DNA of 64,000 nt from a phage. This document shows, piece after piece, positions 22,495 through 31,021 of the stretch (positions are counted from its first letter, which is position 1; every line of letters starts with the position of its first letter). The stretch lies in assembly GCA_036611895.1 (NCBI GenBank), contig GCA_036611895.1_4766.1; one strand, given 5' to 3'. Both the position numbers and the translations under genes were made by a program. A model generated the notes under the pieces. It was not told where the DNA came from, searched no databases, and worked only from the letters and a program-made list of their open reading frames with translations.

Positions 22495-22520
22495 ACCAAA
22501 AGCTGCGGAGCAGCTATTAC
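22495..22520 (-). promoter_or_regulatory. vRNAP-type hairpin promoter candidate (P-d), 45 nt upstream of RNAP II gene
   Basis: agctgc-gga-gcagct: 6-bp stem, GGA loop, same architecture as the three hairpins at 26.98-28.16 kb; preceded by aaccaaa. Confidence 0.45.
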
Positions 22521-22781
22521 CTAACGCTTAGTCCAAAAGGTAATACGAATACTGTTTTCATTACCGATGTAGTCGATGCGTACATGCAGACCATTACCAT
22601 TAAACTCATTACTTTTCTTCTGATAAGGCCAGACTAGGCTAGTCATAGGTATTTTGATGAAACCAGATATGTGGCCTAGCTTAGTACGACTCTTTAATTC
22701 ATTTTGTAATGCACAATAGATGTCGTGCCGTGTGAGTGCTCTGGCTCTGACTTGAGCAGACCATAATTCTTCATATGTCAT
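22521..22781 (-). CDS. hypothetical protein (86 aa)
   Basis: ORF track. Confidence 0.4.
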   Translation of the reverse strand: MTYEELWSAQVRARALTRHDIYCALQNELKSRTKLGHISGFIKIPMTSLVWPYQKKSNEFNGNGLHVRIDYIGNENSIRITFWTKR

Positions 22782-23161
22782 GAGAAGGTTCCCCAGTAGA
22801 TATAATCATCTCCCAGAATGGGCTTCCAGGCTTCGTCAAACATGACATTGCCAGTAGCATTGGCAAACATAGGAGCGATTTCTTCATCCTTATAGCCAGC
22901 TAATCCACAACCAATACGTGTTACTTTAAAGTCCCACTCTGGATGTGCTGCTGCATACAGGATAAATGCTTCAACGAATGTTTTAATGTCTTCTAAGGAC
23001 ATAGTCTTTATTGACTGGTCTTTGGTTGGAATTGCATAGCTGCAACCATAATGGCCTACGCCCATACCCCAACGAGCACCATGCTTTTTATATGCAACTT
23101 TCGCTGCACCAGCACCGTGACGACCTGCTAAATTACTTCCGAATACAAAGACTTCTTTCAC
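22778..23161 (-). CDS. hypothetical protein with glycine-rich nucleotide-binding-like N-terminus
   Basis: 127 aa. VFVFGSNLAGRHGAGAAKVA and IGCGLAGY motifs; family not assignable by eye. Confidence 0.45.
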   Translation of the reverse strand: MKEVFVFGSNLAGRHGAGAAKVAYKKHGARWGMGVGHYGCSYAIPTKDQSIKTMSLEDIKTFVEAFILYAAAHPEWDFKVTRIGCGLAGYKDEEIAPMFANATGNVMFDEAWKPILGDDYIYWGTFS

Positions 23162-23340
23162 ACTAACCCCCTTACTTCTTTATAGAATTTAACAGCGTCT
23201 TCCTGAGTTTCAGGCTTAACTTCATAAACATAGTCAAGAGCTTGTTCGTGGTCTTTCTGTTCCTTCTTGGTTCTACAATGACCACATTTACCATCCCATT
23301 GGGATACATGGCCTTTACCACATTTGCATTGTTTATTCAT
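23158..23340 (-). CDS. zinc-ribbon small protein (start adjusted)
   Basis: CKCGKGH...CGHC four-Cys motif; ATG overlaps stop of upstream gene. Confidence 0.4.
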   Translation of the reverse strand: MNKQCKCGKGHVSQWDGKCGHCRTKKEQKDHEQALDYVYEVKPETQEDAVKFYKEVRGLV

Positions 23341-23713
23341 TAGGATTCTCCACAAAATAGTTATATATAGCCTTTACTAGCTTCTCTTTAATAACCTCAC
23401 CATGACAAGGTTTTGGATAACAGAAGCACTGTAAGGCCAATCCTTTCTCGTCAATGGCTTTATTACCAAGACGATTAAGTTCATCCAGTACAACTGGATT
23501 CTTTCTCATGATTTGTTCATTAAGCCATACTCGATACTTGGCTATAACCTGTTCTCTCGAACCGTCTTTACCAATGACAAATGGATTGCCTAATGGTGAG
23601 CCACGCCCAATATACTCACCGGATTTACTGTGATGTTTATTAACAATAGTAATTGATCGTGCAGTTACACCCATTAGAGTATCTGTGTTATTACCTATTG
23701 AAATAGTCTTCAT
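23333..23713 (-). CDS. hypothetical protein (126 aa) with GNPF and CxC...CHG motifs
   Basis: RGSPLGNPF ... CFCYPKPCHG; resembles a DUF-type family common in phages, identity not verifiable here. Confidence 0.45.
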   Translation of the reverse strand: MKTISIGNNTDTLMGVTARSITIVNKHHSKSGEYIGRGSPLGNPFVIGKDGSREQVIAKYRVWLNEQIMRKNPVVLDELNRLGNKAIDEKGLALQCFCYPKPCHGEVIKEKLVKAIYNYFVENPNE

Positions 23714-24024
23714 GGTTTAAGTACCTGGAATGGGAACACAGGACGTTTACTACGCCACTGGTTCATAGCTAATTCACTGGTTTCAGAACCATCATGTAAG
23801 TCATAGATAAATGAGATTACATAGTCTGGTTCTTCCGGGAAGTTCTCTGTAGAGAATGGTAGCCCAGATTCCTTAAGGATAGGAACCAGTGGTGATTCAG
23901 CATTACAATAGAGGGTAAACTCTTCATTAAATGCCTGGCTTGTCTGAGATACATAATCAATATTACGCATCATCTTATCTACATCAGTAAATGTAGAATC
24001 ATGAACTACTAGAATAGTTTTCAT
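23710..24024 (-). CDS. hypothetical protein (104 aa)
   Basis: ORF track; 4-nt overlaps with neighbours. Confidence 0.45.
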   Translation of the reverse strand: MKTILVVHDSTFTDVDKMMRNIDYVSQTSQAFNEEFTLYCNAESPLVPILKESGLPFSTENFPEEPDYVISFIYDLHDGSETSELAMNQWRSKRPVFPFQVLKP

Positions 24025-24275
24025 ACCTTTCTTAATGTCCCATAGATGTTATTATCGACAATATTCAAATCACAAAAACCAATCTCTTCTTGTCTCCCAG
24101 AGGATACCCAGATATTGTTTTCTGTTAGCTTAGGCTTTTTAGAGAATCCTATTAGTGAGGTATTAGCACTCTTATATTGACGAGGTAGTAATGCTATATA
24201 CTTAACCCAGTGAGGCACTTGAATAGTATGCTTCATATATTCCACAGTCTTGCCTGTAGGATATGTAATAATCAT
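24021..24275 (-). CDS. hypothetical protein (84 aa)
   Basis: ORF track. Confidence 0.4.
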   Translation of the reverse strand: MIITYPTGKTVEYMKHTIQVPHWVKYIALLPRQYKSANTSLIGFSKKPKLTENNIWVSSGRQEEIGFCDLNIVDNNIYGTLRKV

Positions 24276-24632
24276 TTAGTACCTTACAACATATACGGGT
24301 TTATTAAGCCTATTCATGATATCAATCATGTGCTTGGTTCCTTTGGAATTACCATCCCAGAAGCACACAGCAGCATCTGCAAATTCACCCATTTCTTTAT
24401 TCCTACGGAATCCAGCAGATTTGCCATAGGTATCCCATTCAGCAGGGAATACATGTATCTGCATATTTGCAGATTTCCATAGATGGAAAGCTAATATATC
24501 TGCTCCACGAGCCATACCACATACCAATTCTGGGCATTCCGGTATATTCCCTGAATTTACTAACTTCTGTAATTCCTCAATCATACGATTGGTATTTACG
24601 AAGTCTCTCCCACCAGCTACAATCAGTCTCAT
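24276..24632 (-). CDS. SLOG/DprA-LOG-like Rossmann-fold protein
   Basis: 118 aa. RLIVAGGRDF ... GMARGADILAFHLW ... VCFWDGNSKGT resemble the Smf/DprA-LOG (SLOG) superfamily signature. Confidence 0.45.
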   Translation of the reverse strand: MRLIVAGGRDFVNTNRMIEELQKLVNSGNIPECPELVCGMARGADILAFHLWKSANMQIHVFPAEWDTYGKSAGFRRNKEMGEFADAAVCFWDGNSKGTKHMIDIMNRLNKPVYVVRY

Positions 24633-24850
24633 TTCTGATACCCCTGTATATAGTTAATACGGCGAATACGTTGAGTAGATGCCTTAACAGCTATCTGTTG
24701 ATTCTCTTCTTTATGCTGATTATTCAGGATCTTATCCCATTCCTTCTGGTTCCGTTGTTTCTGTAGAATACGACTACACTTCTTATGATTAGCAACTCCT
24801 CTTCCTTTATTGCAAATCGGGCAAATACCATAATTAGTGCTGAACAACAT
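24629..24850 (-). CDS. zinc-ribbon small protein
   Basis: CPICNK ... HKKC motif. Confidence 0.4.
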   Translation of the reverse strand: MLFSTNYGICPICNKGRGVANHKKCSRILQKQRNQKEWDKILNNQHKEENQQIAVKASTQRIRRINYIQGYQK

Positions 24851-24862
24851 TTTGTTTATTCC

Positions 24863-25096
24863 TTAGTAAGTATATTCAAGAGAGGTTTTACCATCTGTAT
24901 GACATACAGATACTTTACTATCTATGAAGTACATCTTGTTATTAATACGTACTTCATCAATAGAGAAATTGCTAAAAGGTTTAGAGTACACCTTACGAAC
25001 AATAGTTCTGTTAGTACCCTTTAGTTTAATTCGGGCATAACCTTTTCGGTCAACGAATATCTCATTACCTACAATTACATCACTGAGGTTGTTCAC
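24863..25096 (-). CDS. hypothetical protein (77 aa)
   Basis: ORF track. Confidence 0.4.
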   Translation of the reverse strand: MNNLSDVIVGNEIFVDRKGYARIKLKGTNRTIVRKVYSKPFSNFSIDEVRINNKMYFIDSKVSVCHTDGKTSLEYTY

Positions 25097-25397
25097 TTAG
25101 TGCCTCCAGTAGTATTTTACGAATAACATTTACATCAGATTCAGTACCAATTAAACCAACAGGTTTACCTGTACTATCTGTTACAAAGGATGCAATCCTT
25201 TCCATCTCTGCTGTAATTAACTTGTCACCACTAATAAGACGATTACGAAGGTAAGCTTCATAAGCTACCTCTACATCTTCTACCGTGGTTCTTTCATTAC
25301 GAGTGAATGGATTACTTAATGGGAAAGGTAAGTGGATACGTATATTCCGGTCAGCTATCTTAGCTGAATGGGGAAGTATACAAACAATTTCATTCAA
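25080..25397 (-). CDS. hypothetical protein (105 aa)
   Basis: ORF track. Confidence 0.4.
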   Translation of the reverse strand: MNEIVCILPHSAKIADRNIRIHLPFPLSNPFTRNERTTVEDVEVAYEAYLRNRLISGDKLITAEMERIASFVTDSTGKPVGLIGTESDVNVIRKILLEALSEQPQ

Positions 25398-25647
25398 GGT
25401 TATTTCTCCTATTTAAATACATATCTAACTATTCAAGAATAAAAAATAGAAGCCCTCCTAATGGAGGACTCCCAGTTCTACTAATGCACCATAGGTTAAT
25501 AGTGCAAACATGGTTATTGAGATAAGCCAGTTCATTTGAACGCATCCGGGTGATTGAAGGTAACAATCTTACGTACTGGTTCAGATGTCTTTTTCTTAGC
25601 AGCCAGACGCTCTTTCATCTTCTGTACGTCTTCTTTGGTTCCCATGA

Positions 25648-25830
25648 TTAATGACTTACGCATGATTTAGTACTCCACATAAAGTTAAAAGGTTTACTGT
25701 TACGTACAATTCTTACAACCATTTGATAGCCATTGAGTTGTACAACACCATAGTGTCGTTTCTGTACACCAGTGTGATACCTACGAAAGATACACTCTTC
25801 AATGGCATCTTCTATGTTAGTGAATATCAC
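25648..25830 (-). CDS. hypothetical protein (60 aa)
   Basis: ORF track. Confidence 0.35.
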   Translation of the reverse strand: MIFTNIEDAIEECIFRRYHTGVQKRHYGVVQLNGYQMVVRIVRNSKPFNFMWSTKSCVSH

Positions 25831-26045
25831 TGGTTCCTCTTTGCAAACTCTTCGGCTTCCTTAGCCCAGAGTTGCTTACGATCTTCTTTAGCTACGATGG
25901 AAGCAAACAGGCATTTAACGAATACAACTGGTAACTTACAAATAAGTACCAGCTTAGTAATTACCCACTTGGCTCCATTGAGAATGTAACCACGTAGGTG
26001 ATAAAGCACATAACAGAGTATTACAAACGCAATGAAGTCCAACAT
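25827..26045 (-). CDS. small membrane protein (72 aa)
   Basis: MLDFIAFVILCYVLYHL hydrophobic N-terminus. Confidence 0.4.
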   Translation of the reverse strand: MLDFIAFVILCYVLYHLRGYILNGAKWVITKLVLICKLPVVFVKCLFASIVAKEDRKQLWAKEAEEFAKRNQ

Positions 26046-26047
26046 AG

Positions 26048-26347
26048 TTAGTCCTTACAGTTAATGAATTGAGAATGTAATTCACCATTACAGATATTCA
26101 TACCATCTTCATAGTATGGCTCACCTAGTTCTTCATAGTAGGCTTTGTCATCAGGATGTGGTCTAACCACCAGGTCAAATGCAGGTAATTGACTGCCACC
26201 ATCAATCACGTTGAGTAAGCTGAATATAGCTCCCTCAATACGTTCAGTAGTATCTCCTCCATCTGGAGTATTTGCCCAGTAATGTACAATTTCTTTAGCA
26301 TTAAGTAGGAATTTATTCCTTACTTCTTCCTCAGTAAGTGCTCTCAT
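26048..26347 (-). CDS. acidic early protein (99 aa)
   Basis: ORF track; Asp/Glu-rich composition (DKAYYEELGEPYYEDG). Confidence 0.45.
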   Translation of the reverse strand: MRALTEEEVRNKFLLNAKEIVHYWANTPDGGDTTERIEGAIFSLLNVIDGGSQLPAFDLVVRPHPDDKAYYEELGEPYYEDGMNICNGELHSQFINCKD

Positions 26348-26444
26348 TTAGTACATATCCTCTTCTAATATAAATCTATATCTATCTGGTTACTGTTTCA
26401 GTACCCTTCGTCTAAAGATACTCAAAAAGTAGAAATAGCTTATC

Positions 26445-26475
26445 GTCTAGTTAAAAATAAAAGACTCCCCGAAGG
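26445..26475 (-). terminator. intrinsic terminator after first early gene of promoter P-c
   Basis: gactccc-cgaa-gggagtc hairpin preceded on plus strand by aaaaataaaa. Confidence 0.45.
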
Positions 26476-26490
26476 GAGTCTATTGGTTGA

Positions 26491-26871
26491 TTAGAAAGTC
26501 AGTTTACGAGCATATTTATTCTCGTCTGCTGGGATGTCAGCAGCCTCTGCTTTCACACGACGAAGTTGAACTTGCAGGTTAATGATACCTTCTTCACCTG
26601 GTTCCAGGTTCTGAGCATATGCGATTAACTGTTCCAGCAAGTCGTTCTGTGCACAACGCATAGCACGGAAGTCAGCATTGCTGCTATTGGTAGGCAGCGG
26701 TTCCTGAGTATCCAGTGGAATACCAGTAGGCAGTGAGATGAATTTCTCATCATCAGAGCCTTCATTAGCCACATAACCAATGTTCAGCCAGAACTGAGCT
26801 TTTGGTTTGTCAGTTTTAGCAGTAGAAGCAGTATCGTTAGACTGACCGAAAGTGAATTTTTGAATAGACAT
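26491..26871 (-). CDS. early protein (126 aa; start at internal ATG with GGAGAG RBS)
   Basis: ORF track 26491..26964; annotated first ATG lies only about 19 nt from promoter hairpin centre with no RBS, internal Met (MSIQKFTF) has one. Confidence 0.5.
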
Positions 26872-26969
26872 TTTGTACTCTCCAGATTTATGTGATTTAC
26901 GGGTGAACTCGTCGGTGAGAACACCCAAACAAAAGGATAAAAGTTCAATGATTAGTGGATGCATTTACA

Positions 26970-27000
26970 TCATCCATAAGACGCGGAGCGTCTTGGTTTT
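26970..27000 (-). promoter_or_regulatory. vRNAP-type hairpin early promoter (P-c)
   Basis: tccataa-gacgc-gga-gcgtc-ttggtttt: 5-7 bp stem with GGA loop; conserved flanks shared with P-b. Confidence 0.6.
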
Positions 27001-27003
27001 GGC

Positions 27004-27273
27004 TTACCAATACATAGCTGCTGTGCCTTCTTCGGCAAAGAACTCATCTAAGCTGTTTTGATTTTCTTTACGGAACTGACGACGCAGCTTACGGATTTGT
27101 TTCTTGGTAGGTTTAGCAGGGAAACTGTAGTCAACAACCAGAGGCATTCTGGTTTCTTCACATACTTCAGAGAACCATAACTGCCACTCTGCTGCAGCAG
27201 GGATGTGTTGCTGCTTACCAAAAACCGGTTGCTTAGTACCACCAACATAGAACAGGTCAGTATTAAATTGCAT
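27004..27273 (-). CDS. early protein (89 aa)
   Basis: ORF track; RBS CAGGAG upstream; about 44 nt downstream of P-b hairpin. Confidence 0.5.
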   Translation of the reverse strand: MQFNTDLFYVGGTKQPVFGKQQHIPAAAEWQLWFSEVCEETRMPLVVDYSFPAKPTKKQIRKLRRQFRKENQNSLDEFFAEEGTAAMYW

Positions 27274-27299
27274 GAGTAAACTCCTGAATTAAAATGATA

Positions 27300-27325
27300 T
27301 CCAATAGAAGCGGAGCTTCTTGGTT
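27300..27325 (-). promoter_or_regulatory. vRNAP-type hairpin early promoter (P-b)
   Basis: tccaata-gaagc-gga-gcttc-ttggtttt; matches the N4 early promoter hairpin as I recall it (GAAGCGGAGCTTC). Confidence 0.6.
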
Positions 27326-27326
27326 T

Positions 27327-27698
27327 TTAAGGAATGTAGGACAACCAGGTTAATAGTTCTGCTTTAGCTTTCTGATACTTACTGTCTACAGTTTCATCTG
27401 AGATATCTATGTCTGATTCTCCGTAATGATGGATGTCAGACTGATATTGCTCTTGCTGGCGAATGGCTTCCTCGAATCTATTTAATGCTTCAATAGGTTC
27501 TTGTTTTTGCCATACCCATAAAGCACCTGCAAGAGGTAGATTGTCATCTTTGTACCAACGTGGTCCTATTCCAGATACACACTTTAATTTACTATCTTCA
27601 GTAAGAATGAATCTTCCTGGTGAGTGAAATTTTCCTACTAGTTCTGTTCCTACAGGAACATCTTTAGTTAATGATTTTACGCAAATGTACTTAGCCAT
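27327..27698 (-). CDS. early protein (123 aa)
   Basis: ORF track. Confidence 0.5.
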   Translation of the reverse strand: MAKYICVKSLTKDVPVGTELVGKFHSPGRFILTEDSKLKCVSGIGPRWYKDDNLPLAGALWVWQKQEPIEALNRFEEAIRQQEQYQSDIHHYGESDIDISDETVDSKYQKAKAELLTWLSYIP

Positions 27699-27785
27699 TA
27701 TCTATCTCCAAAGTAGATAGTTATCTACTTTTGACTATCTATCTAATGTTCAAAACAGGAGACTCCGAAGAGTCTCCTTGATGAC

Positions 27786-28109
27786 TTAGTCTTTAGTCAG
27801 GATGTCAATTACTTTGGAATATTCTGCGTTATAGATCCGAGCGTTCTCTGAATCCTTGCAGAATTCCTCGATACTTTTCTTACGCAGAGTCTCAGTCATA
27901 GCTGTTTCCTCTGCCAGTTTATTAACAAAGGTATGCATTTCTAATTTAGTACGAATGGCTTGTTTCTCTGCCATAGTACTAACATATGAATTAAGCATAC
28001 CTACTGCTTTAGTTGCTGTGCTGAATGTATCTGCAACAGTAGTAGCAGCTGAGTTAACAGTACCAAGTAAAGTTCCTGCGGTCATACGTACAGTAGCTTG
28101 AGTAGTCAT
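27786..28109 (-). CDS. early protein (107 aa), first gene downstream of P-a
   Basis: ORF track; about 49 nt downstream of P-a hairpin centre. Confidence 0.5.
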   Translation of the reverse strand: MTTQATVRMTAGTLLGTVNSAATTVADTFSTATKAVGMLNSYVSTMAEKQAIRTKLEMHTFVNKLAEETAMTETLRKKSIEEFCKDSENARIYNAEYSKVIDILTKD

Positions 28110-28145
28110 GATGATAGCTCCAATAGTTGATGATAGGACGACATG

Positions 28146-28168
28146 TCCATAACATGCGGAGCATGTGT
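28146..28168 (-). promoter_or_regulatory. vRNAP-type hairpin early promoter (P-a)
   Basis: tccataa-catgc-gga-gcatg: same stem/GGA-loop architecture and tccataa flank. Confidence 0.55.
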
Positions 28169-28343
28169 AACGTGTAAGGTGGGGTAGGGTAGTGGCTACA
28201 CCGTCAACATACCGGGGGGGCTAGTTGAGTGTAAGGGTGTAGCCCCAGCCACACCACTATGGCTGTACATAGCTATCACAATTTTGACATGCAAAAATAT
28301 TATAGGCACTATCTCTATAAGCAGATAACTTTGAGGTACTAAC

Positions 28344-28472
28344 ATGAAAGATGGATGGGGTAACTACAATCCTACAGACCCTGAGAACTGGCTTCACTTT
28401 ATTGCATGGGCTTGCGCTGTAGGATTCATAAGTATTGTGCTCTTATCACTGGTTCTATCTTATCTGTAAATA
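28344..28472 (+). CDS. candidate 42-aa single-pass membrane micro-protein on the opposite strand
   Basis: MKDGWGNYNPTDPENWLHFIAWACAVGFISIVLLSLVLSYL; GAGGT 6 nt upstream of ATG; TTGACA hexamer about 55 nt upstream; hairpin follows stop. Confidence 0.3.
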
Positions 28473-28473
28473 C

Positions 28474-28497
28474 TATGGGGGATAGCTATTTATCCCC
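28474..28497. terminator. hairpin (possible bidirectional terminator) between micro-ORF and paralog array
   Basis: ggggata-gctatt-tatcccc stem-loop read in sequence. Confidence 0.35.
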
Positions 28498-28667
28498 TAT
28501 TCATCATAGCGTTTAATACCTAAAACCTTGTATAGCTTACCCTTTACAAGCAATGGTCCACCTACTTCTACGAAAGCTAGGCTGTGTACTATCACTGGTT
28601 CAAGTAAGCCTTTTACTGTTATATACCACATATTAATCCTTATAAGCAGTTAAATAGGAGGAAGTGG

Positions 28668-29072
28668 TTAGTAGCTATCTGTGATACCAAAGGACATATG
28701 ATAACCACCTGTGTTTACATCCCAGGGTTGCGACAAATTAATATCCCAAGGAAGTGTCTTTCCAGATTCAAGTATTCTTATAGACCTGAAGGAGTTACCC
28801 TCTTTTATCATACTGGTTTTTACTGTTACCGGTAGGAAGATATGGAAGTAATCCCCTTCTGGTGCAAGGTAAGTATCTCCTTCATTGAGGGTAACTATCT
28901 TTGCTTTGCTGTTAGTGAGAAGTCTATGCCCCTGTGCAAAATCTGCTAACTCTCCTGGTTCCATTATTAGTGTAGAACTCCCATAGGTCATAATATGGAT
29001 GATTGCTTTTTCTGGTTCAGAGGAATAGTGCAGTAAATCTGTACCATTCATCCCTAAGAGTTTAACGTTCAT
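28668..29072 (-). CDS. paralog-array protein P6 (134 aa)
   Basis: Core STLIMEPGELADFAQGHRLLTNSKAKIVTLNEGDTY aligns with the other five paralogs. Confidence 0.55.
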   Translation of the reverse strand: MNVKLLGMNGTDLLHYSSEPEKAIIHIMTYGSSTLIMEPGELADFAQGHRLLTNSKAKIVTLNEGDTYLAPEGDYFHIFLPVTVKTSMIKEGNSFRSIRILESGKTLPWDINLSQPWDVNTGGYHMSFGITDSY

Positions 29073-29075
29073 ACT

Positions 29076-29360
29076 TCAGTACCTTTCCTTATAGATGGGG
29101 GTGCTATCATCGAATGATAGGATGTACTTGTCTGTATTAAGATGCCAAGGACTAAAGCTACCCTGCCAGGACATAGGTGTTTCTGGTTCAAGTAGATGTA
29201 CTACCGAATTCTTATTGTATAGGAAGAGTAATCCTTGTATCTCATGTAGAGACTGTTCATCTGGAACCAAGATAAGTACATCAGCATTCAGGTCAGCTAT
29301 TTCTTTATGGTGGATGTAATTTTCCCCATTAGGCTCTGGATAAATTTTACTGATAACCAT
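29076..29360 (-). CDS. paralog-array protein P5 (94 aa)
   Basis: Core DVLILVPDEQSLHEIQGLLFLYNKNSVVHLLEPETP. Confidence 0.6.
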   Translation of the reverse strand: MVISKIYPEPNGENYIHHKEIADLNADVLILVPDEQSLHEIQGLLFLYNKNSVVHLLEPETPMSWQGSFSPWHLNTDKYILSFDDSTPIYKERY

Positions 29361-29680
29361 TAGAGACTCTCGTCGCTAGATAAATATGAGGTAGAAGGGT
29401 AGAGGGTAATAAGTCTACCGGTAAGGGTAGTAACTACCGTAGGTTCAGCAGTTGATAAGATATATACTCGTGCAAACTCAGATATCTCAACTGATGTATC
29501 TATCTTAGTGAATGTAATGGGTATGCCTAACATTAGACATGTACCTATGAACTCATCTGCTTCTTCATTTGGTTCATATAGGATAGTAGTTCCATCCATC
29601 TTACCATTTAAACAATCTTGTTTAGTTACTTTGCTGCGATAGCAACTTGTACTTAGAGCAACTAATGAGTAGAAGTGCAT
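29360..29680 (-). CDS. paralog-array protein P4 (106 aa, most diverged)
   Basis: Core TTILYEPNEEADEFIGTCLMLGIPITFTKIDTSVEI. Confidence 0.5.
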   Translation of the reverse strand: MHFYSLVALSTSCYRSKVTKQDCLNGKMDGTTILYEPNEEADEFIGTCLMLGIPITFTKIDTSVEISEFARVYILSTAEPTVVTTLTGRLITLYPSTSYLSSDESL

Positions 29681-29683
29681 GGC

Positions 29684-29998
29684 TTACTTCCTTACATAGT
29701 AATAATGGTATTCCTCATTCTCATGACTACTATCCCATTGGTAATCATCAGATACCAACATGAAAGGCAGGGCGTCATATGCACTGCTATCGGCATAGAC
29801 GGAAGGAGGAATGATACATACAACCTTACGATCATTACCTGCTAAGAATAGTTGACCTCTTACTTCATGGTAGTCCTCTAGAGTAGGAACCAGGATTACA
29901 TGCTGAGGATTGCTATCTATCACTTCTTCTAAAGTGAAGTCTGTTGTGTACAAGGATTCCCCTTTAATAAAACTGGGGGCGGTCAGTATGAATTTCAT
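29684..29998 (-). CDS. paralog-array protein P3 (start at internal ATG with AAGGAAGGAAAA RBS)
   Basis: Core HVILVPTLEDYHEVRGQLFLAGNDRKVVCIIPPSVY; ORF track 29684..30073. Confidence 0.6.
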   Translation of the reverse strand: MKFILTAPSFIKGESLYTTDFTLEEVIDSNPQHVILVPTLEDYHEVRGQLFLAGNDRKVVCIIPPSVYADSSAYDALPFMLVSDDYQWDSSHENEEYHYYYVRK

Positions 29999-30359
29999 GA
30001 TGGATTTTCCTTCCTTTAGGAATAGGTCTGAAGTAAACGGAAAGTGTTTTATTAAAGAGGTTATGTTCAACAATCATTTCCCAGCCTGGTACTTTATAGA
30101 ACCTGACTCCTGGGAAGAATGTTTCGAAGTCTGCATACTCAGTAAGGTCATACACAACTGGTTCAGTAAGTATACGCGTATTGATTTGCAGATTACTTAA
30201 GAAAAATGAACCAACTATCTCGTGGGATTCTTCGCAGTCTGGTAGGAAGACTATTTGTTTGGATAGGAACTTACTAACTATCTCTGGTTCCCCTAGGTAG
30301 TATGGTTCCTGCTTACGTAGTACACCAGTAATATCAATATCAAAAGCGTAGATGCTCAT
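29964..30359 (-). CDS. paralog-array protein P2 (131 aa)
   Basis: Core QIVFLPDCEESHEIVGSFFLSNLQINTRILTEPVVY; strong RBS CAGGAGG upstream. Confidence 0.6.
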   Translation of the reverse strand: MSIYAFDIDITGVLRKQEPYYLGEPEIVSKFLSKQIVFLPDCEESHEIVGSFFLSNLQINTRILTEPVVYDLTEYADFETFFPGVRFYKVPGWEMIVEHNLFNKTLSVYFRPIPKGRKIHHEIHTDRPQFY

Positions 30360-30374
30360 ATTTGCATACCTCCT

Positions 30375-30410
30375 GAAAAAGAAATGGGGTAGAGCCTCTC
30401 GACTCTACCC
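30375..30410 (-). terminator. intrinsic terminator inside the paralog array, just upstream of P2 RBS
   Basis: ggggtagag-cctctcga-ctctacccc (9-bp stem) preceded on plus strand by aaaaagaaa. Confidence 0.5.
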
Positions 30411-30559
30411 CTTACCGTTTTCTATCACGGGTCAGTTCATCACCCTAGATACATGTGTATCGTTAGCCTACTAGGTAGGAAAGGAGCCGGGCAACCCTGA
30501 CTGTAGAAGTTATTAACTCTTTACGAGTACCGCCACTGTCTACTAGGCGGCATGACTAA

Positions 30560-30850
30560 TCACATCGTCACCGTCATCCGAACACTGTCTTTGCTTCGCC
30601 TGACGGAGACACTATGAGGTAATTTTGTGAAGAACACAAGAGCTGATGGCCCCTTTTCTAAAGAGTAAGTTTCTCTTGGTTCTAAGATTTTAATGCCCGG
30701 ACGATTCTCTAAAAGCATCATCCCAGCTAATTCATGGTAGGTATCTTCATTATGGGTAATAATGATATCACCTGAAAGAAAACCAGCCTTAGTGTGGTCT
30801 AGCTCCCTGTATTCATCTTTAGAGCCTGAGACTTTCATATAGATTCTCAA
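30560..30850 (-). CDS. paralog-array protein P1 (96 aa; TTG or internal ATG start)
   Basis: Core DIIITHNEDTYHELAGMMLLENRPGIKILEPRETY; first codon is TTG with AAGGAG upstream, in-frame ATG 4 codons later. Confidence 0.55.
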   Translation of the reverse strand: MRIYMKVSGSKDEYRELDHTKAGFLSGDIIITHNEDTYHELAGMMLLENRPGIKILEPRETYSLEKGPSALVFFTKLPHSVSVRRSKDSVRMTVTM

Positions 30851-31021
30851 AGGTTACTCCTTTTGGGAATAGGGTCATCGGAACAATACATACTATTTAG
30901 TATCATGAACTTTTTCTATATCATGACTAAAGTGTAACTGTATGGTATCGTTTCTTCAAGGGGTATCTCACCCCAAGAAAAGAATCTTCTTTAATAGACA
31001 TAACTTTGTAGCGAGATAAGT

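Follow-up and report, generated by a model that had tools for sequence, protein, structure and literature searches.

Genome-end junction and a small membrane-peptide gene predicted in a low-coding interval of a G7C/N4-like coliphage

Results

Genes and features of the interval

The window, a stretch of 64,000 nucleotides, is a Gamaleyavirus (G7C/N4-like) genome joined into a circle, and it shares 84-94% DNA identity with G7C-type phages. Its longest internal gap runs from 28110 to 28667 (558 bp) when ORFs of at least 50-60 amino acids on the transcription-consistent strand are counted; under that threshold, an earlier note's description of the interval as the longest stretch without a listed ORF was confirmed, and every feature that the note had reported there was found in the sequence at its coordinates. 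Whether the interval counts as "low-coding" depends on the ORF length threshold, and two small genes cover approximately 260 of the 558 bases because 28497-28631 on the minus strand encodes a 44-aa homolog of N4 gp72. An Rfam scan at gathering thresholds gave no match anywhere in the window, and a tRNA/tmRNA scan found none.

Immediately below the interval lies the first early gene (27786-28109, minus strand), which matched phrog_5020 (E = 1.3e-44) and whose homolog is called gp1 in the Jura, N4, and IME11 annotations. The hairpin ACATGC-GGA-GCATGT at 28152-28166, labeled "P-a" in the earlier note, sits upstream of this gene. Judged by published determinants and by alignment with N4, 28148-28166 (minus strand) is the ortholog of N4 P1, the first early promoter used by the virion RNA polymerase, with initiation predicted at 28148. 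The template is the plus strand, which reads +1 C at 28148, ATAA, the stem CATGC, the loop GGA (28158-28160), and the stem GCATG. Promoters of the virion RNA polymerase are determined by a purine at -11, G at -10, G at -8, and C at +1 (PMC4496689); the site carries -11G, -10G, -8G, and +1C together with the hairpin of such a promoter, which has a 5-7 bp stem and a 3-nt loop, and its alignment to N4 GTTGC-TTC-GCAAC shows two compensatory changes in the stem. The sequence GCGGAGC occurs at four sites on the template (plus) strand from 22505 to 28162, all of them well formed, and the three other early-region sites have the P1 architecture with different but complementary (covarying) stems. The homologous site in KP8 is annotated there as an early promoter. 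Matches to the promoter motif on the opposite strand (30593, 38381, and 58970) were rejected because they had no stems.

At the upper end of the interval, the gp72 homolog (28497-28631, minus strand) is 68% identical to its N4 counterpart over 41 aa (E = 2e-20), matches phrog_19797 across residues 1-44 (E = 1.9e-28), has an AAGGA ribosome-binding site 5 nt upstream, and occupies a syntenic position downstream of the gp71 paralogs. This conserved gene was overlooked in the earlier ORF list, and it is already a CDS in the annotations of VTCCBPA_322, St11Ph5, pSb-1, and Jura. A conserved hairpin (28478-28497, minus strand; GGGGATA-N6-TATCCCC) begins at the gp72 stop codon. Compensatory changes preserve its stem in St11Ph5 (GGGGTAG/CTACCCC) and in the UE/PBM phages (GAGGGTA/TACCTTC), and the UE/PBM version gives the better fold when read on the minus strand. 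A terminator scan scored the hairpin as terminator-like on the minus strand, and on the plus strand no T-run follows the stem. The rightward gp70-71-paralog-gp72 unit would end above 28252, closed by this hairpin, which is probably the terminator of the gp70-72 transcript and may also end a convergent transcript from the plus strand.

That convergent transcript would come from ORF41 (28344-28472, plus strand), which codes from 28344 to 28469 with its stop at 28470-28472 and yields a 41-aa peptide (MKDGWGNYNPTDPENWLHFIAWACAVGFISIVLLSLVLSYL). A GAGGT Shine-Dalgarno sequence (28333-28337) lies six bases ahead of the ATG at 28344. In the peptide, an acidic N-terminal tail bearing the motif Y-(D/N)-P-x-D-P-x-N-W-L precedes a single predicted transmembrane helix (residues 20-38, mean Kyte-Doolittle hydropathy 2.58). 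The gp72 homolog and ORF41 together form a module flanked by a 26-nt imperfect direct repeat (28636-28661 and 28311-28336, 77% identity), and phages without the module (G7C, Mimir124, Bas96, IME11, ZQ2, and CU10EC) have a single repeat copy that matches both copies in the window. The module is present in some and absent from other relatives that are otherwise collinear.

Upstream of ORF41, an 84-bp segment at 28253-28336 was found in all Gamaleyaviruses examined, with 74-100% identity, including phages that have no ORF41. It contains two sigma-70-like hexamer pairs on the plus strand, ATCACA-17-TATTAT (28275-28303) and TTGACA-17-CACTAT (28284-28312), the TTGACA hexamer itself occupying 28284-28289. 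Both pairs are fully retained in every ORF41 carrier, and TTGACA and CACTAT are changed in Mimir124, IME11, ZQ2, and CU10EC. A sigma-70 scan found 1 site against a mean of 3.6 in shuffles, hence no enrichment, and the match to consensus was weak. We saw no evident late-promoter motif shared between the region upstream of the late operon (30851-31021) and that upstream of ORF41.

Genome ends and the direct terminal repeat

A direct terminal repeat of 401 bp maps to 27852-28252 and is present in this circularised assembly as a single collapsed copy. Its placement draws on three sources: mapped termini, an annotated repeat, and the starts of database records. The termini of IME11 were mapped by high-frequency read starts, with pile-ups at GTGGCTGGGGCTACACCC... 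and AATCTTTGCAGAA... lying 401 bp apart (PMC3896407), and these terminal sequences map to 28252 (minus strand) and 27852 (plus strand) of the window. The direct terminal repeat annotated in Mimir124 (403 bp) maps to 27852-28252. The records of Bp4, Uz-1, VTCCBPA_322, and PBM-3 begin at about 27842-27852, and those of N4 (base 1), KP8, RiverRider, St11Ph5, PD38, PhAPEC7, and U1G begin at positions that correspond to 28249-28252; the terminal-repeat boundary of G7C maps there as well, and the Mimir124 repeat annotation ends there too.

The boundary sequence therefore matches the experimentally mapped termini of close relatives (IME11). By this homology, we infer that the terminase cut that starts the repeat, and with it the left physical end of the virion DNA in this isolate, lies at 28250-28252 (minus strand). 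The canonical N4 orientation corresponds to the minus strand of the window, and the DNA above 28252 would be the last unique sequence ahead of the right-hand copy of the 401-bp repeat. Reading down from 28252, the order is a terminal element conserved across Schitoviridae, the P1-type hairpin promoter (start 28148), and gp1; reading up, it is the semi-conserved 84-bp segment, ORF41, the covarying hairpin, and the gp72 homolog. The gp1 ATG lies 144 nt from the proposed left end, and N4 gp1 begins at base 154.

We conclude, with a probability of roughly 0.8, that assembly joined the two ends of a linear G7C/N4-like coliphage genome with terminal repeats and that the 558-base interval is the resulting junction. 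The earlier note had placed it between P-a and the paralog array; on this reading it is not an internal spacer. As a fallback, the note had suggested an origin or a packaging-related structure; the packaging or terminus half of that suggestion stands, given a predicted physical end and repeat boundary at 28250-28252.

The left-terminal element

The conserved non-coding element at the left terminus (28167-28252, minus strand) contains the motif GGGGCTACACC, a C7 run followed by GGTATGTTGAC, and the motif CCCTACCCCAC. These show no or almost no variation in N4, KP8, G7C, U1G, the Xanthomonas phage RiverRider, and 17 IMG/VR loci. The 143-nt leader is 97.9% conserved, compared with 94.7% for the gp1 coding sequence. 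Within the element lie two complementary arms, ggctacacc (28194-28202) and ggtgtagcc (28236-28244).

These arms raise the possibility that the terminal inverted repeat folds back at a single-stranded 3' end and primes replication, as a telomere-like origin. N4 and most Gamaleyaviruses do have arms of 8-9 bp in this location, and hairpin priming at an N4 terminus is attributed to Ohmori et al. 1988 in a report on IME11 (PMC3896407; see also PMC3715699). However, the 9-bp inverted repeat on its own is barely beyond chance, KP8-type phages have unrelated sequence in place of its second arm, which in G7C is shifted, and the arms show no covariation, since their sequence is identical wherever they exist. 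Single-strand DNA folding of the terminus gave z-scores of only -2.0 for the window and +0.5 for N4, and with such weak scores and inconsistent folds across the window, N4, and KP8, we rejected a stable terminal fold-back structure. What stays invariant is the primary sequence of the motifs, which better fits protein binding. We consider fold-back priming unlikely. The first ~85 bases may instead serve as a protein recognition site for terminase cutting and packaging or for handling of the end.

Coding evidence and distribution of ORF41

ORF41 is the only one of the six frames without stops, and its pN/pS within the genus is 0.23, compared with 0.5-1.4 in the other five frames, in a small sample of related sequences with 25 variable sites. 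In the N-terminal half, comparison with gp49 of phage K1-5 gave pS 0.71 and pN 0.17 (pN/pS 0.24). The earlier note had named a frame that is not conserved in relatives as the observation that would count against its micro-ORF; the in-frame ratio went the other way, and the micro-ORF is upheld. Homologs of ORF41 are K1-5 gp49, other Vectrevirus genes, and proteins of T7-like metagenomic phages, and in Vectrevirus and the T7-like contigs the gene is always the last before the genome end. The DNA homology between ORF41 and K1-5 is restricted to the ribosome-binding site and the ORF.

We performed an exhaustive profile search across 1.8 billion representatives, which yielded 7 hits at E up to 0.001, 5 of them short-peptide relatives. 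The two weakest hits (proteins of 1959 and 874 aa, with 13-17 residues matched) were taken as spurious. When ORF41 and K1-5 gp49 were searched against Pfam and PHROGs, neither was assigned to a family, the only hits being two marginal PHROGs (E = 0.019 and 0.27). The ORF41/gp49 family is small or poorly gene-called. We found no functional or expression data on K1-5 gp49 or other family members in the literature, and no transcriptome for N4 or G7C-type coliphages.

Within the genus, ORF41 is intact in 5 of the 7 carriers examined, and a nonsense codon interrupts it in UE-S5a and UE-M6. St11Ph5, 24-32N, and pSb-1 have lost it by deletion, and most of the genus lacks it; any function is therefore dispensable. 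Its loss or disruption in many relatives, the lack of a promoter enriched over shuffles, and the position of the interval beside the terminase cut site and the conserved pre-repeat segment would all suit a reading in which the whole interval acts only in cis, through packaging, cleavage, or replication signals, with ORF41 as an untranslated chance frame. The selection described above speaks against a chance frame, as do the good GAGGT site at 6-nt spacing and the recurrence of the same motif and transmembrane helix in unrelated podoviruses, found by the profile search. Phages that do not have the ORF41 segment keep the same ends, and packaging therefore does not require it. A purely cis-acting interval is thus improbable, and we regard ORF41 as a genuine but accessory gene on comparative sequence evidence, with expression predicted.

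The earlier note had further proposed that host RNA polymerase produces the micro-protein antisense to the early unit, which would imply antisense or interference control of early transcription. ORF41 is indeed on the strand opposite gp1 and gp72 and has the TTGACA hexamer upstream, but the geometry does not fit. Early RNA is predicted to start at P1 (28148), inside the repeat and downstream of the left end, and to head away from ORF41, which lies beyond that end in the unique DNA of the right terminus. The physical DNA end at 28252 would part ORF41 from the early unit in the infecting molecule. Transcription of ORF41 would lead away from the repeat and converge only with gp72, overlapping at most the gp72 3' hairpin. 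Antisense control of the early unit is accordingly very unlikely. Least credible of all is a type I toxin-antitoxin-like or abortive toxin, a hydrophobic killer peptide checked by an antisense RNA: ORF41 resembles such toxins in its size and single hydrophobic helix and is convergent with another transcript, but there is no Rfam match anywhere in the window, all homologs are ordinary co-directional last genes of virulent podoviruses, and conservation falls on the acidic N-terminal motif, not on the helix.

Discussion

The interval at 28110-28667 is largely ordinary, known architecture together with a member of a small, uncharacterised family of membrane peptides. By analogy with N4, gyrase-driven supercoiling would extrude the P1 hairpin on the incoming left end, injected virion RNA polymerase would then use the promoter, and RNA from 28148 would express gp1. 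At the other end, ORF41 appears to be a horizontally shared cassette on the late-gene strand, carried by a subset of phages. Host RNA polymerase may transcribe it from the sigma-70-like candidate promoter at 28275-28312 after the right end enters the cell, and the peptide would insert in the inner membrane, its N-terminus facing the periplasm. There, it may act as a dispensable modulator, for which lysis timing or superinfection exclusion would be the likeliest roles. The link of the ORF41 family to lysis comes from one metagenomic neighbourhood.

These elements can be joined in a broader proposal, which we put forward tentatively and hold to be possible rather than probable. The gp49/ORF41 gene would encode a mobile, late-expressed inner-membrane peptide, exchanged between the unrelated virulent K1-5-type Autographiviridae and G7C-type Schitoviridae and maintained at the far right of the genome, that tunes lysis timing or excludes superinfecting phages via its conserved periplasmic motif, Y-D-P-x-D-P-x-N-W. 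As a separate matter, the left-terminal element of ~85 nt, whose conservation extends from N4 to the Xanthomonas phage, could be a recognition site, either for the terminase or for the ejected polymerase when it docks on the DNA end that enters.

The chief value of this analysis lies in annotation: an anomalous-looking "non-coding" stretch in a circularised phage assembly can be accounted for as a genome-end junction. The analysis places the likely ends of this phage at 28252 and 27852 and locates its first early promoter and the missed gp72 gene. The left-terminal 85 nt, highly conserved across Schitoviridae, is a candidate site for how N4-like terminases define ends. What is new is a family of 41-aa membrane peptides, previously "hypothetical" and outside Pfam and PHROGs, which two unrelated families of podoviruses have in common, at the same place in the genome, and which is under purifying selection. 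Since natural alleles exist (intact in PBM-3, nonsense in UE-S5a, deleted in St11Ph5), its function should be easy to test.

Comparison with known systems

The left end of N4 has the same order as proposed here, with gp71-gp72, the end, the terminal element, the P1 hairpin, and gp1. N4 base 1 aligns to window position 28250, and the promoter determinants are shared (PMC4496689). The distance from the gp72 stop to the end is 77 bp in the N4 record and 244 bp here, owing to the ORF41 cassette and the 84-bp segment, and the P1 stem is CATGC/GCATG here but GTTGC/GCAAC in N4, with a template-strand loop of GGA rather than GAA. A recent paper on the N4 ejectosome does not discuss the DNA end. In IME11, the left-end read sequence is identical to the one here over the first 18 bases and the other end over 17/20, the repeat has the same length of 401 bp, and the 154 bases beside the left end are 100% identical (PMC3896407). 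IME11 differs in that it has neither gp72 nor ORF41, and its last paralog gene adjoins the pre-repeat segment.

The closest counterparts of ORF41 are K1-5 gp49 and its Vectrevirus relatives, peptides of 41-42 aa with the motif KDGW..Y(D/N)PTDP.NWL..IA.ACA followed by one transmembrane helix, as in ORF41. Pairwise identity with K1-5 gp49 is 46% (profile E 1e-20 to 1e-22; tblastn 5e-5). K1-5 gp49 and these relatives are annotated only as hypothetical proteins. K1-5 gene 49 is the last gene before the right end and is co-directional with all other genes, pointing toward that end, whereas ORF41 lies in the opposite orientation to the adjacent genes and is read away from the repeat. The two sit in unrelated flanking DNA, and a different polymerase would have to transcribe the gene in each phage. 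T7 gene 19.5, which encodes a short hydrophobic product just before the right terminal repeat, can be seen as a positional analogue; as a relative it was rejected, with no detectable sequence similarity (hhalign probability 0.1%).

Finally, although this phage is virulent and offers no context of lysogenic conversion, the ORF41 cassette resembles phage morons, which are self-contained accessory cassettes that sit between conserved genes, in its presence/absence polymorphism, the short direct repeats at its borders, its orientation on the strand opposite its neighbours, and the candidate promoter hexamers upstream and candidate terminator hairpin downstream.

Probable location of the genome ends

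Megablast of window positions 27000-31000 matched 61 phage records at 84-94% identity, nearly all of them Gamaleyavirus. This genus comprises the G7C-type N4-like coliphages of the Schitoviridae. Genes lie on the minus strand below about 30850, and gp69 and the large terminase lie on the plus strand from 31022; relative to the canonical N4 orientation, the window plus strand is therefore reversed. The sign of the GC skew switches near 28-31 kb. An earlier note had singled out 28110-28667 as a low-coding region. This is indeed the longest internal gap when ORFs of at least 50-60 aa are counted on the expected strand only, and all the features named for it were found in the sequence where the note had placed them. 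The adjoining gene (28668-29072, minus strand; 134 aa), the final one of the gp71-type paralog array, appears to combine two members of the array by fusion or recombination, as residues 1-97 match phrog_12606 and residues 97-133 match a different family, phrog_16338.

Several independent lines concur that 28110-28667 is the junction of the two genome ends, which we infer for this phage from homology to its relatives. The G7C record carries a terminal-repeat feature whose inner boundary corresponds to window position ~28253, and the annotated 403-bp direct terminal repeat of Mimir124 corresponds to ~27851-28253. In IME11, high-frequency read starts were reported at GTGGCTGGGGCTACACCC... and AATCTTTGCAGAA..., spaced 401 bp apart (Li et al., PMC3896407). 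The first 18 bases of GTGGCTGGGGCTACACCC are identical to the window minus strand from 28252, and AATCTTTGCAGAA resembles the plus strand from 27852. Base 1 of N4 (TGGTGGGGCTACACC) aligns with 28250; the records of St11Ph5, PD38, PhAPEC7, U1G, KP8, and Xanthomonas phage RiverRider start at 28249-28252, and those of Bp4, Uz-1, VTCCBPA_322, and PBM-3 start at the other boundary, ~27842-27852. The delimited 401-bp interval (27852-28252) occurs as a single copy within the window, so the two repeat copies were merged during assembly and the sequence was circularised. Direct terminal repeats of 390-440 bp are given for N4 (Ohmori et al. 1988, as cited in PMC3715699). The earlier suggestion of an origin or packaging-related structure is thus supported in one respect, in that a packaging-generated end lies in the region. 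Two irregularities at the terminal repeat are likely assembly or homopolymer artefacts: in the CU10EC record, part of the repeat/leader region is duplicated in tandem (L018 1501-1634 and 1773-2003), and the PE007 stretch has a 12-G homopolymer near its start (7 in the window).

Predicted early promoter and left-terminal element

Within the repeat, the hairpin ACATGC-GGA-GCATGT (28152-28166), previously proposed as early promoter P-a, is by its sequence the N4 P1 ortholog. Its sequence on the plus strand, which serves as the template, is C(+1, 28148)-ATAA-CATGC-GGA-GCATG and satisfies the determinants of the N4 virion RNA polymerase, namely a purine at -11, G at -10 and -8, and C at +1 (PMC4496689). 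The aligned position on the N4 record strand reads GTTGC-TTC-GCAAC as against CATGC/GCATG in the window, so the stem has been maintained through two compensatory changes; the homologous site in KP8 is annotated as an early promoter. Three further sites share this architecture (loops at 27312-14, 26985-87, and 22507-09), with differing, perfectly complementary stems, the fourth promoter lying ~5.7 kb from the left end. All four (22497-22519, 26975-26997, 27302-27324, and 28148-28170; template plus) have the build C(+1)-A-rich tetramer-NNNGC-GGA-GCNNN, with stems GCTGC, GACGC, GAAGC, and CATGC. Three motif matches on the other strand had no stems and were rejected. The gp1 gene (phrog_5020) starts 144 nt from the end (base 154 in N4).

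The ~85 nt from the end to P1 (window 28167-28252; 1-85, 1-85, and 1-75 in the related stretches L007, L025, and L026) hold three motifs: GGGGCTACACC, a run of C residues leading into GGTA, and CCCTACCCCAC. They show little or no variation among N4, Klebsiella KP8, G7C, U1G, Xanthomonas phage RiverRider, and 17 IMG/VR loci, apart from the length of the C-run, which ranges from 6 to 13. Within the genus, conservation is higher in this non-coding leader (97.9%) than in the gp1 coding sequence (94.7%). N4 and most Gamaleyaviruses retain the long-range complementary arms in the element (28194-28202 and 28236-28244); in G7C the arms are shifted, and KP8-type phages lack them. Single-strand folding was unremarkable (z = -2.0 in the window, +0.5 in N4). 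Since the arms are not universal and the fold is weak, we read the element as a probable set of protein-recognition motifs rather than an obligatory hairpin; putative binders are the terminase, the ejected polymerase, or replication factors.

gp72 and a variable module

Outside the repeat, the gap also contains a 44-aa gp72 homolog (28497-28631, minus strand; 68% identity to N4 gp72, E = 2e-20; phrog_19797, E = 1.9e-28), which is preceded by an AAGGA ribosome-binding site and was missing from the earlier ORF track. The hairpin GGGGATA/TATCCCC (28478-28497) starts at its stop codon and scans as terminator-like on the minus strand. Compensatory changes have kept this hairpin as GGGGTAG/CTACCCC in St11Ph5 and as GAGGGTA/TACCTTC in the UE/PBM phages, where the minus-strand version is the more stable.

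An imperfect 26-nt direct repeat (28311-28336 and 28636-28661) flanks a module of gp72 and ORF41, the plus-strand micro-ORF; module-less phages have one copy. At least four module states occur among relatives: some lack the module altogether, some have both genes, some have gp72 by itself next to a remnant of ORF41, and in the UE/PBM phages ORF41 is accompanied by an unrelated ORF of 90 aa that replaces gp72 (L011 648-920). The pre-repeat segment (28253-28336) is found genus-wide at 74-100% identity. Its minus (canonical) strand has a perfect TATAAT (28301-28306) within CCTATAAT(A)TTTTT, without a good -35 element; N4 has the motif at the corresponding position upstream of its left end (L008 2604-2617).

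ORF41 as a gene

ORF41 has 41 codons (28344-28469, plus strand; stop at 28470-28472) and a Shine-Dalgarno GAGGT at 28333-28337. In the predicted product, residues 20-38 form a single, strongly hydrophobic segment (mean hydropathy 2.58). The frame is intact in five of seven carriers (the window, VTCCBPA_322, HK2, PE007, and PBM-3), with a stop at E14 in UE-S5a and UE-M6. Synonymous changes account for 14 of 27 single-site changes, summed pairwise pN/pS is 0.23 in frame versus 0.51-1.37 in the other five frames, and the ORF41 frame is the only one of six free of stops. Together with homologs in Vectrevirus, this supports the coding potential that the earlier note had proposed, and three relatives already carry the ORF as a "hypothetical protein." Positions 28304-28485 are missing from pSb-1, and ORF41 is wholly absent from most of the genus, including G7C, IME11, Bas96, ZQ2, and Mimir124. 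By these sequence criteria, ORF41 is a real but accessory gene.

Positions 28367-28478 are missing from St11Ph5 and 24-32N, and both ends of this gap fall within the short repeat GGATGGGG(T/G)A (L006 108-117 and L010 507-516), which suggests that ORF41 was lost by microhomology, or gained at the same site.

The note had also supposed that ORF41 is antisense to the early unit. This is not supported: early RNA is predicted to begin at 28148 and head away from ORF41, and in the infecting molecule the physical DNA end would lie between the two. With no known transcription of the plus strand upstream of it, ORF41 would depend on a promoter of its own. Candidates are the sigma-70-like pairs ATCACA-17-TATTAT and TTGACA-17-CACTAT (TTGACA at 28284-28289), both of which are kept in all carriers; the sigma-70 scan gave no enrichment over shuffles, and the segment is partly present in ORF41-less phages too. 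The right end of the genome is the last to enter the cell. ORF41 lies on the late-gene strand, and N4 late genes are transcribed by host polymerase (PMC4496689). On both counts, its expression should be host-polymerase dependent rather than early. An acidic N-terminal flank (net charge -2) and a neutral C-terminus suggest an N-out orientation.

Relatives of ORF41 and comparison with known phages

Searches with tblastn found the ORF41 peptide as gene 49 of K1-5 and in a further 11 Vectrevirus records, and profile searches found further short relatives in metagenomic T7-like phages. K1-5 gp49, MLKDGWVSYDPTDPKNWLQVIAIACAGSLLAALMYSLWMYTK, is 46% identical to ORF41 (pS 0.71 and pN 0.17 in the N-terminal half), and DNA similarity is confined to the ribosome-binding site and the ORF. 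We found no Pfam or PHROGs entry for the family. T7 gp19.5 was rejected as unrelated. In K1-5, phage 6949, and the metagenomic T7-like contig L021, the homolog is the final gene before the genome-end gap. In L021 (2939-4126), the homolog (P0007) comes immediately after an endolysin (PF00959) and an Rz-like spanin. This arrangement is the one contextual pointer to a function in lysis; on thin evidence, our best guesses are a role in lysis timing or in superinfection exclusion.

The terminus, the repeat, the P1 promoter, and gp72 belong to the known biology of N4. What appears to be new is the extent to which the left-terminal element is conserved and the link, through a peptide family with signs of selection, between a subset of Gamaleyavirus and K1-5-type phages.
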